64,000 nt of DNA from NCBI GenBank assembly GCA_951406725.2, contig OX597822.1, positions 81,282,001 to 81,346,000 on the forward strand. Reading direction: 5' to 3'. The position numbers and the translations under genes are program-made. The first letter of the stretch is position 1; each line of letters starts with the position of its first letter. The notes under the pieces were generated by a model that saw only the letters and a list, made by a program, of their open reading frames with translations, made no database searches and was not told the DNA's origin. Positions 3,865 through 55,010 of this stretch are shown piece by piece. The DNA comes from Octopus vulgaris (taxonomy: Eukaryota).

Positions 3865-4035
3865 TTGTCGAGCACACGGGCAAAATACTTAGCGGCATCT
3901 TGTCTGCCTTTACTTTACGAGTTCCATTCCCGCCGATGTCGATTTTGATATTTACCCTCACGGGGAGCTATAAAATGAGCACCAATTAAGCACTGCTGTC
4001 GATGTAAATGATCAACCCACCTCTCTCAAAATCTC
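3865..4035 (+). mobile_element. SINE type B, diverged
   Basis: 'cacacgggcaaaatacttagcggcat...gccgatgtcgattttg' aligns by eye with 52020-52190. Confidence 0.6.
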
Positions 4036-4059
4036 AATGGAAAAGAGTATCATTATTAT

Positions 4060-4315
4060 TACTATTATGAGGGTTTTTTTTTCCTTCTCTGGCATCGTAA
4101 ATGCCTTGCGATGCCACATTTCCTCGATTTCAATGAAGATGTCTTTATATTTTCTGAGCTTGTCAAATTCTTTTGCTGAGATAGTATGATCACAACGAAT
4201 ACACAAGTCGATCAATAAACAGACTTTATTGTTTTAGTCTTTCACAACATTATCTGGTTTATTATCTTTGATGACTCTCTCTGTATGTACTGGGAAGTCC
4301 CAAACAATCGTTACA
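4060..4315 (-). pseudogene. restriction-like endonuclease (RLE) domain fragment of a non-LTR retrotransposon (R4/Dong-like)
   Basis: minus translation 'IVWDFPVHTERVIKDNKPDNVVKD*...LIDLCIRCDHTISAKEFDKLRKYKDIFIEIEEMW' fits the PD..D..K..KY RLE pattern; contains a stop. Confidence 0.8.
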
Positions 4316-4326
4316 TTATTATTATA

Positions 4327-4389
<63 letters not shown>

Positions 4390-4393
4390 TACA

Positions 4394-4822
4394 ACAGTAT
4401 ACAACCACTCTATCGCTCCACCACCGCTCATGTCTCTTTGAGACATTTAGAAATTCAATATTTCTAATTACGGTGACCAGTGAATAGATTTCACTGTAAA
4501 TATATATATTTGCGAAGGCTAGACAGGCATCTCAACTAGCAGGTCTCACTATCCTGGACTGATGACGGGTAAGACCCAGAAACATGCATGTCTTCAGGTG
4601 TGAATCCTAGTTGGTGGAGGTGCTTGCCTCCCCTTCGCAAATATAAGGACACAGGAAATGTGTCAAAGTCGACAGGAAGCGTCGATGCTTCCTAGGCCTA
4701 AACAGCGGTGGTGTAATTCCCTTACGGGACTGTCACGTTATGCTGACAGTATACAACCACTCTATCGCTCCACCACCGCTCATGTCTCTTTGAGACATTT
4801 AGAAATTCAATATTTCTAATTA
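4394..4822 (+). mobile_element. retrozyme-like element: 352-bp unit plus 77-bp terminal direct repeat, inserted in (ATT)n
   Basis: 4394-4470 is identical to 4746-4822; internal hammerhead; many hairpins; (ATT)n on both sides. Confidence 0.75.
4553..4598 (+). ncRNA. type I hammerhead ribozyme motif
   Basis: stem I CCUGGA/UUCAGG; CUGAUGA 4559-4565; stem II C-GGGU-AAG-ACCC-A; GAAA 4579-4582; palindromic stem III CAUGCAUG; GUC site at 4592. Confidence 0.85.
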
Positions 4823-4829
4823 TTATTAT

Positions 4830-5380
4830 TATTTACTTTTAATTCGTATGCTTGCTACAATCACTTGCGGATACACACCCAGGGGCGAGTGAAGGACAAG
4901 AAATCTTACAGTATGACTAAAACTTTGGTGAGGGGAAGTGGCAGGGGCAGTAGCGAAATATTTTTATGTAATACAACACAGAGAATTAAATTAATTGAAT
5001 TTTCTAGGGATGTGGGCAGTACTTGTCAGTGTAATATTTTGGATTTCTCTGAGACATGGTTCTCCTGGGATATTATCTAGATGTTTCTGACATCCCTTTC
5101 TTATTATGCCCAGGGCACCCACAATAACAGGAACAGTTCTCGCTTTAAGATGCCACATCTTTTGTATTTCAATTTCCAGGTCCCTATATTTACTTAATTT
5201 GTCAAATTCCTTTACAGATATATTTTTATCAGTGGAAACACTTACATCTATTAGTCAACAAATATTATTTTCTTCCTAGTTTTTAATAACTATGTCTGGT
5301 CCATTAGCCTGGATCGCTCTATTGGTGTTGAGTGGAAAATCTCAGATGATAGTGACATTTTTACCTTCAACGACTGGCTT
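4830..5380 (-). mobile_element. 3' end of RLE-type LINE (R4/Dong-like), decayed
   Basis: minus translation 'ANGPDIVIKN*...LIDVSVSTDKNISVKEFDKLSKYRDLEIEIQKMWHLKARTVPVIVGALG' followed by a UTR ending in (AAT)n. Confidence 0.8.
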
Positions 5381-5422
5381 TCATCCTACACAAGCCTGAC
5401 CTTCTTACTTCTAATAATAGCG

Positions 5423-11195: not shown

Positions 11196-11494
11196 GGCAA
11201 GAAGAAAATGGTGGAGATACAGAAATAGCATGCATCAACTGTTAGACATTATATTATGTCTATTTATTTTAAACAATTATGAGAATATAAATACATATGT
11301 AAAGTACTAGCAATTTCTAGAATAGAGAAAGAACAGTTTCTTAGAGCTGTTTCTCCCGAAAGGTCACAATATTTCCATCTTTTCAGTGTACTGTAGTAAT
11401 CGGTAGATAAATTTGAGAGTTTAAAAGAGGGTCTAAAAAGTTCAGAGAGCTAATGAATGTATATATAAATATACATATACACACTCACATATAT

Positions 11495-11538
<44 letters not shown>

Positions 11539-11569
11539 ACACTTGTACAGACATACACACACATATTGA

Positions 11570-42226: not shown

Positions 42227-42960
42227 TGGTGGTTTATTTATGATGTGTTCAGAATCAGTTCTGCTGAGGATCATAGACGTAAGTTATATGTGAAATCACA
42301 TATAAGATTCCTTATTAAGAAGTTATCCTTAATTGTTAAATATATATATATATATTATAAAATGAGATAGGGGTTGAAAATTCAACCCACCATGGGATAA
42401 TATATATCCAATATACTGCTAGATAGGTACCCAACAAGACTAATACATAGATGTTAAAAATTGCCAAACAATCAGTTCATCTATTGTATTATATGGGTAA
42501 AGGTAATAATATTACCGTAAATTAATACTACAAAATTAGAGAATAGAGAAACATACTTAAATCAATAAAACATCAACTATCAGATGATACCCATGGTGGT
42601 TTATTTATGATGTGTTCAGAATCAGTTCTGCTGAGGATCATAGACGTAAGTTATATGTGAAATCACATATAAGATTCCTTATTAAGAAGTTATCCTTAAT
42701 TGTTAAATATATATATATATATTATAAAATGAGATAGGGGTTGAAAATTCAACCCACCATGGGATAATATATATCCAATATACTGCTAGATAGGTACCCA
42801 ACAAGACTAATACATAGATGTTAAAAATTGCCAAACAATCAGTTCATCTATTGTATTATATGGGTAAAGGTAATAATATTACCGTAAATTAATACTACAA
42901 AATTAGAGAATAGAGAAACATACTTAAATCAATAAAACATCAACTATCAGATGATACCCA
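42227..42960. repeat. apparently identical 367-bp tandem duplication
   Basis: 42227-42593 matches 42594-42960. Confidence 0.9.
42264..42305 (+). ncRNA. hammerhead-like motif (duplicated at about 42631-42672)
   Basis: CUGAGGA-U-CAUAGAC-GUAA-GUUAUAUG-U-GAAA; stems I and III degenerate. Confidence 0.45.
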
Positions 42961-54384: not shown

Positions 54385-54652
54385 TTACATTATTTACATT
54401 CGACAGATATTTGTCCTCATCTTCTTCAGGTGTCTTGGGGGAAATTTCGAACCTGGGTTCTAATTCCTAAGGTATTTTTCGATGTTGTTGTTATTATTAT
54501 TGTTGTTGTTGTTGTTGTTGCTGCTGCTGCCGTTGTTGTTGTTGTTATTGTTCAGATCACTCTTGGAATCGAACTCGGAATCTTGGGGTTAGTAGCTCGC
54601 GCTCTTAACCACTACACCATATGCCCGTGGGCATAGTGGTTAAGAGCGTGGT
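54385..54652 (-). mobile_element. tRNA-headed SINE-like element with internal (TTG/TTA)n and a terminal fold-back
   Basis: minus head 'tggtgtagtggttaagagcgcgagctactaacccc...gagttcgattcc'; 54630-54650 is an inverted copy of the head. Confidence 0.65.
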
Positions 54653-54791
54653 GGTGGTGGTCGTCGTCGTCGTGGAGGTGGTGGTGGTGTGTTTATAGCG
54701 AATAGTATTTCTTTTTATCTATAACATTCTTCCACATGTGCGTAAAAGAATAATATTATTGTTTCTCAGAGAGGGGTGGATCTGAATGTTA

Positions 54792-55010
54792 TGTCTGGAG
54801 AGAGTCATTCTCTTTTGGTACGTTATAATTTAACACATTCATCGCTCAAATTTCCACTGCTTTTTTTATTTTTCTAAATTTTCGTTGCATCTTGGAAAGG
54901 TTGCAAGATGCAACGAAAATTTTAGAAAAATGAAAAAGAAATAAGTAGAAATTTTACTGGTGAGTGTGTTAAATTATAAGGCACCAAAAGAGAGTGATTC
55001 TCCCCAGACA
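54792..55010. repeat. imperfect inverted duplication (arms 54792-54894 and 54904-55010)
   Basis: reverse-complement arms; the right arm's extension to about 55073 matches 34530-34615 on the opposite strand. Confidence 0.8.

Follow-up and report, generated by a model that had tools for sequence, protein, structure and literature searches.

The window analysed here is a 64,000-nt stretch of Octopus vulgaris DNA (64% A+T), and at the end of an (ATT)n tract located at 4315-4389 it carries a 429-base element that amounts to 1.22 copies of a 352-nt unit, with a GC content of 45% and a single hammerhead (Table 1). The original prediction had described about 1.2 units in an (ATT)n context, delimited by a 77-nt exact direct repeat and devoid of coding signal, and all of this holds: the two repeat copies are identical at a spacing of 352 nt, and the longest frame on the 352-nt circle has 71 codons. 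Missed at the time was a duplication of the target site, at least 18 nt long, which overlaps the last 4 bases of the element. The flanks (3960-4310 and 4823-5400) are themselves repeats, the element lying within an older repeat common to locus L009 and others, and elsewhere the window holds an exact 367-bp tandem duplication (42227-42960, 2.0 copies, 100%). By itself, the window copy is an ordinary monomer.

Table 1. Features of the hammerhead-bearing element, in window coordinates
Feature	Position	Strand	Remark
5' copy of target-site duplication	4375..4392	+	within (ATT)n tract; identical to 4819-4836 over at least 18 nt
Upstream partial unit, 5'-truncated, pLTR-like; putative cDNA stop in window copy	4394..4470	+	100% identity with 4746-4822
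Last full 352-nt unit, non-coding	4471..4822	+	
Long rod extending hammerhead stem I; would bring both cleavage ends together	4505..4645	+	39-pair helix, 93% of cells paired
Passenger insertion site, empty in window copy	4529..4561	+	junctions at element position 136-168 in other copies
Type I hammerhead motif	4553..4598	+	C.A mismatch at stem II base; palindromic stem III; predicted cut 4592/4593
Inner fixed 3' end; putative first reverse-transcription start	4760..4770	+	22/30 copies end there
Tail of ~55 nt to outer fixed 3' end; putative second start, used by window copy	4766..4822	+	6/30 copies end at 4819-4823
3' copy of target-site duplication	4819..4836	+	first 4 nt common to element end

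Inspection of the sequence confirms the type I hammerhead that had been proposed, without support from Rfam, where the unit had no match at the gathering threshold or at E<=10 save one chance CRISPR match. Stem I (4553-4558/4593-4598) has 6 bp including one G-U, the core occupies 4559-4565 and 4579-4582, stem II (4567-4570/4574-4577, 4 bp) has a C.A mismatch at the position of the canonical G10.1-C11.1 pair, and stem III (4582-4591) is a 10-nt palindrome. Only the plus strand of the unit carries such a motif, none being found on its minus strand. On the minus strand of the window, two more hammerhead-like pattern matches with a stem I of 5 bp (around 49471 and 44470) are candidates only. Around the hammerhead, the long-range stems 4505-4518/4632-4645 and 4533-4539/4607-4613 are perfect complements as originally described, and the six hairpins named at the time all fold (-4.4 to -9.8 kcal/mol). 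A further pairing, 4704-4713 with 4771-4780, is likewise perfect, but it was said to span the repeat junction and in fact falls wholly within the last full unit, and therefore does not point to a circle.

The linear unit folds at -138.1 against -90.9 for shuffled sequences (z -8.9, 0/100 shuffles as good), its circular form at -134.8 (z -8.9) and its minus strand with a z of -7.2, which bears out the expectation of a fold better than shuffles. However, among 40 background windows equal in length, 2 also reach z <= -8 (12 shuffles each; 11201-11552 with z of about -10 and 54601-54952 with z of about -8), and strong folding alone is therefore not unique in this DNA. The minimum-energy fold conceals the hammerhead core, the active fold costing 3.4 kcal/mol, and the C.A mismatch together with the short stem III may make for weak cleavage. 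Two copies folded together in the double-hammerhead shape reach -32.7 kcal/mol against 2 x -11.4 kcal/mol for single copies. At locus L093, which holds a natural cut-to-cut monomer, the ends are joined by 46 base pairs, a modelled pairing that suits ligation.

A search of the octopus's own genome (2.8 Gb, 227 contigs) gave 2,736 first-look candidates, which are not copy numbers, and the 40 of these that were scored had 82-100% identity to the unit, which is thus a dispersed and abundant non-coding repeat family. Its words are also present in public runs under four organism labels. Four contig sets, RNA by our guess, include the unit, their coverage being deeper at 4610-4810 than at the hammerhead; these contigs, which cannot show ends, strand or circles, cover the flanking repeats too and carry no weight here.

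Circularly permuted copies, which the original prediction had proposed to look for, were not seen; instead the 3' ends fall at either of two fixed sites, separated by about 55 nt. With a mid-unit query neutral to the ends, 22 of 30 loci ended at element position 367-377 and 6 at 426-430, with 2 elsewhere (L207, L208 and L217 being duplicates of one insertion), and, with a query confined to the hammerhead and eight duplicates dropped, 19 of the 22 loci left ended at the same two sites. The pooled count is 48 of 52, 30 of the 52 having been picked by a full-length query. The 5' ends, by contrast, are ragged and scattered across the whole unit, and they do not pile up at the cut site (1/30 exact in one set, 0/30 in the mid-unit set; both queries favour long copies and under-sample short stumps), so cut linear monomers were not the main template. 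An inverted partner on the 5' side is present in 14 of the 52 loci, 11 of the 14 ending at the two sites, and in all nine inverted-pair loci with both ends at those sites the 55-nt tail occurs on a single end. Units follow one another head to tail at the 352-nt period in spans from less than one to about four units, with no ORF between them. Tandems with at least two hammerheads occur at L005, L028, L093 and L099, no long arrays of the family were found, and most copies are dispersed, 5'-truncated and single. Target duplications of 9-14 nt are present at several non-microsatellite loci and are absent or short at many; 3' flanks are at least 70% A+T in 39 of 52 loci, against a window background that is already 64% A+T.

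These marks are those of Penelope-type elements (PLEs), whose insertions are described as partial tandems that are truncated on the 5' side, where an inverted copy is joined, and that bear a tail of 30-40 bp on one of their ends (PMC8557442); partial tandem, 5' truncation, inverted 5' copy and one-ended tail are all present here. From this likeness in insertion structure, mobilisation of the unit by PLE-type machinery is highly probable. Since the copies bear the PLE insertion signature, the 77-bp repeat of the window copy is best read as a partial tandem (pLTR), and since the family fits PLE insertion structures, it would mark a chance cDNA stop and not a fixed terminal repeat. The terminal redundancy, once taken as evidence of a circle, is thus by itself no proof of one. 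Nor does the term viroid-like find support, with the hammerhead on the plus strand only and the fixed ends away from the cut site.

The possibility that the unit is a viroid-like replicon turned endogenous, or a SINE-like element dependent on a LINE for its movement, could draw on its high self-pairing on both strands and its long target duplication with 3' microhomology, but the lack of a minus-strand hammerhead, the unpermuted ends and the want of any poly(A) or simple-repeat tail common to the copies speak against it, as does the two-site tail with its tail-less inverted partner, which is a PLE mark; we regard it as very improbable. Equally improbable, and already largely refuted, is the idea that the copies are mere 3' stumps (pLTRs) of an autonomous PLE still to be found, with no life cycle of their own. 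Most copies are indeed single and 5'-truncated, and the PLE loci sampled are a small part of the total; however, the units run head to tail at their own period with no ORF, no PLE ORF was found upstream of copies in the five locus sets scanned, and subfamilies with paired changes of their own imply repeated propagation. Fixed ends together with attachment to a coding PLE or LINE had been named beforehand as signs against the original prediction, and while the ends are fixed, attachment to a coding PLE was seen in no copy examined. The reverse transcriptase (RT) and GIY-YIG ORF of an autonomous PLE is likewise absent from the unit. At the same time the unit has several features of a non-LTR retrozyme: a type I hammerhead in a non-coding repeat of 150-450 bp with GC <50%, a target duplication longer than 4 bp (at least 18 nt in the window copy), tandems of at least two hammerheads (in the family, not in the window copy) and strong self-pairing (z -8.9, weaker in the sister family B described below). 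The two labels offered at the outset, retrozyme and pLTR-type PLE derivative, both apply, as names for one and the same thing.

Further evidence comes from the conservation of structure. The pair that begins stem I (4558/4593) reads A-U in 13 of 27 aligned units and G-C in 11 of them; two pairs of the rod switch, each in 7 copies, and 6 pairs of the rod have changed on both sides. Changes on both sides of a pair amount to 36 cells against 17.2 in shuffles (0/500 as many), a count that related copies inflate, as the shuffle ignores relatedness; the number of pairs with such a change (9) is not above shuffles (254/500). In a set not chosen by hammerhead likeness, differences occupy 6 of the 330 cells of the hammerhead core, as compared with 6.4% overall. 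The unit (family A) also has a sister, family B, with a 353-nt period, 67% identity to family A over 156 nt and 4,204 candidates (L128:1081-1490; L149-L173), which keeps the hairpin order, the C.A variant and the two-site ends with a different stem III palindrome, and folds weakly (z -1.7 as a circle, -3.2 and -3.5 for two natural monomers). A third variant, family C (L106 and L107), likewise retains the architecture. One family B unit, at L156 (G000:C23:42842945-42843745), is preceded by about 17 tandem 50-bp repeats, each with the hammerhead core and stem II and without the closing stem I. Within one insertion, repeats differ at 33 of 258 diagnostic sites and inverted partners at 11 of 121, as against 44% between loci, and because the repeats of an insertion mostly share subfamily letters, each insertion appears to have been copied from one template lineage.

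Which form of RNA served as template is the point at which the main rival must be weighed. On this view, tandem loci yield linear read-through transcripts and the PLE-dependent element was copied from these in uncut form, with the hammerhead slow or late and the circle unneeded. A PLE protein of the anole is reported to start reverse transcription internally on unprocessed RNA in vitro, and hammerhead mutants insert normally (PMC11167929); loci of two to four units are possible sources, and both the missing pile-up at the cut site and the variants common within a locus fit this reading equally well. Against it, covariation in stem I and a core that three families conserve make the ribozyme fold, judged from sequence, look selected. 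Moreover, multimeric source loci are few among the best 40 matches to a near-dimer query, and mussel and axolotl units of this size are reported to accumulate as circles (PMC7229834, Cervera and de la Pena 2020), circles also having been proposed as the source of PLE tandems (PMC4209133). We consider copying from linear read-through rather unlikely, and, granted PLE mobilisation, a circular template moderately probable.

We favour overall, with some reserve, the reading that the element is a non-LTR retrozyme whose fixed ends are of Penelope type and that a PLE enzyme likely reverse-transcribed it in trans, probably from a circular RNA monomer. The hammerhead would cut multimeric transcripts, likely acting as a dimer by way of the palindromic stem III, and the monomers released would be ligated into circles. 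A PLE protein would then nick AT-rich DNA and cDNA would begin at one of the two fixed internal sites, much as the anole enzyme cuts at ATT in vitro and starts at two internal RNA sites whose spacing equals the tail (PMC11167929). Synthesis would run a variable distance (352 + 77 nt in the window copy) before stopping, leaving the terminal repeat, and a second, inverted cDNA from the other start site would often be joined at the 5' side.

Intact elements with RT and GIY-YIG are present in the genome, which has 6,136 GIY-YIG candidates. One young family (L081-L084; L081:1745-4090) combines an intact 781-aa RT + GIY-YIG frame with a second frame of 330-480 aa upstream of it and shows a hammerhead-like motif close to the 3' end of the element, but as a partner it was rejected, having no sequence in common with units A, B or C, and the other sampled PLEs were set aside likewise. 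Among 45 GIY-YIG-linked loci and 20 of a second family, no sequence common to unit and autonomous PLE was found, apart from family B insertions at L130 and L288 that look to be separate events. The second family was reached through L107, where a fragment of PLE reverse transcriptase (oriented 1000-1170) abuts the 5' end of a composite of family C, with microhomology at the join, possibly through a template switch; its ends (20 loci) are unrelated to the units, and it too was rejected.

Four hammerhead matches had one foreign upstream sequence in common, and through it a passenger element was found. It is 1.68 kb long (400 candidates), with a GT-rich start, a single ORF and an AATAAA end. The ORF is intact in L126 (467 aa; L126:1679-3082, minus strand), with a weak zf-CCHC match and one weak homologue; its look-alikes in a protein atlas are CCHC/ZCCHC3-like (0.91-0.92, recognition just below threshold), in clusters whose taxa agree with a mollusc source. 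In 22 of 25 sampled loci (in the range L104-L128 and L234-L247, and including two pairs of neighbours) the passenger adjoins a hammerhead unit, in 17 on both sides, and of the remainder one stands in tandem inside a unit and two are unflanked. In families A, B and C alike it sits immediately upstream of the hammerhead core, at junctions that vary and with a duplicated target that bears the letters of the local subfamily, which argues for separate insertions and suggests that the passenger likely targets the hammerhead-bearing unit. That one old composite was reshuffled by template switching is less likely, and against it counts L236, where three different ORF1 types stand in a row within one family B unit, with the target after each. 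Composites of unit and passenger carry PLE marks, being 5'-truncated inside the passenger or having inverted partners. Just 5' of the passenger in L113 are about 30 nt that presumably resemble the 5' end of U1 snRNA, a piece that Rfam did not confirm. No ORF2 linked to the passenger was found at its loci, and the ORF2 at L235 was rejected as part of a separate LINE, abundant and ending at (TATC)n (L248-L272; 3,267 candidates, zf-RVT), after whose 3' end a TATC-type repeat starts in 25 of 25 loci.

Combined with the marks of the unit, these observations lead us to put forward tentatively, at a little under an even chance, a parasite system of three tiers: PLE enzymes would copy circular hammerhead RNA from two fixed starts, ORF1-only Tx1-like elements would have specialised on the site just upstream of the hammerhead and gained a 3' end set by the ribozyme as well as transport by the PLE, and unit-ORF1-unit composites would spread as gag-only pseudo-LTR elements. 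Such targeting would let a non-coding retrozyme become a protein-carrying composite in a simple way. Titles and abstract openings of the literature on Tx1 and hammerheads mention no mobile element that targets a hammerhead-bearing retroelement near its catalytic core. Elements of the Tx1 clade target snRNA genes, microsatellites and other transposons (PMC4494074), and like Tx1L, Keno and Tx1-Mar as described there, the passenger inserts at one site in another repeat, has a 10-25-nt duplication, accumulates in tandem and encodes a CCHC-knuckle ORF1. Unlike them it is without ORF2 and its target is a ribozyme-bearing retroelement, so the Tx1 label expresses likeness, without a linked reverse transcriptase.

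What is new here is this family, with its unusually clear PLE insertion marks and the passenger that likely targets it; retrozymes, their link to PLEs and mollusc members are already in print. Going by titles and abstract openings, none of the papers listed on octopus hammerhead ribozymes and on cephalopod Penelope elements or retrozymes describes the family, which Repbase or Dfam may already include. Similar to the non-LTR retrozymes of animals (350-390 bp in Mytilus, 330/350 bp in axolotl; PMC7229834), it has a non-coding unit of 352 bp and 45% GC with a type I hammerhead, a long target duplication, strong self-pairing, and monomers to short multimers. The axolotl HHR_Amex2 also has a mismatch at the stem II base, yet cleaves, while in a recent preprint one of nine Xenopus dimers cleaved and eight did not (Li, Clavereau and Pollet 2026, 10.64898/2026.07.22.740005). 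Unlike those retrozymes, the present family consists mostly of dispersed truncated copies, and it had no homology to a PLE pLTR in the PLE loci sampled; its inverted partners and the fixing of its ends at two sites, as documented here, do not figure in the parts of the retrozyme accounts compared. The mover of animal retrozymes was left open between LINEs and PLEs (PMC7229834), and a PLE has since been argued from co-occurrence and homology (10.64898/2026.07.22.740005). In our case the insertion marks themselves speak for a PLE and two likely start sites can be named, which makes the question testable.

The likeness to endonuclease-bearing PLEs such as Poseidon of Anolis (PMC11167929; PMC8557442; PMC4209133) extends from the partial tandem, 5' truncation, inverted 5' copy and one-ended tail to two putative starts downstream of the hammerhead, a palindromic helix III and, perhaps, AT-rich targets. 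The present unit differs from these elements in having no ORF and a tail of about 55 nt as against 30-40, and from the minimal hammerhead of the PLE type in that its stems I (6 bp) and II (4 bp) are of canonical size.
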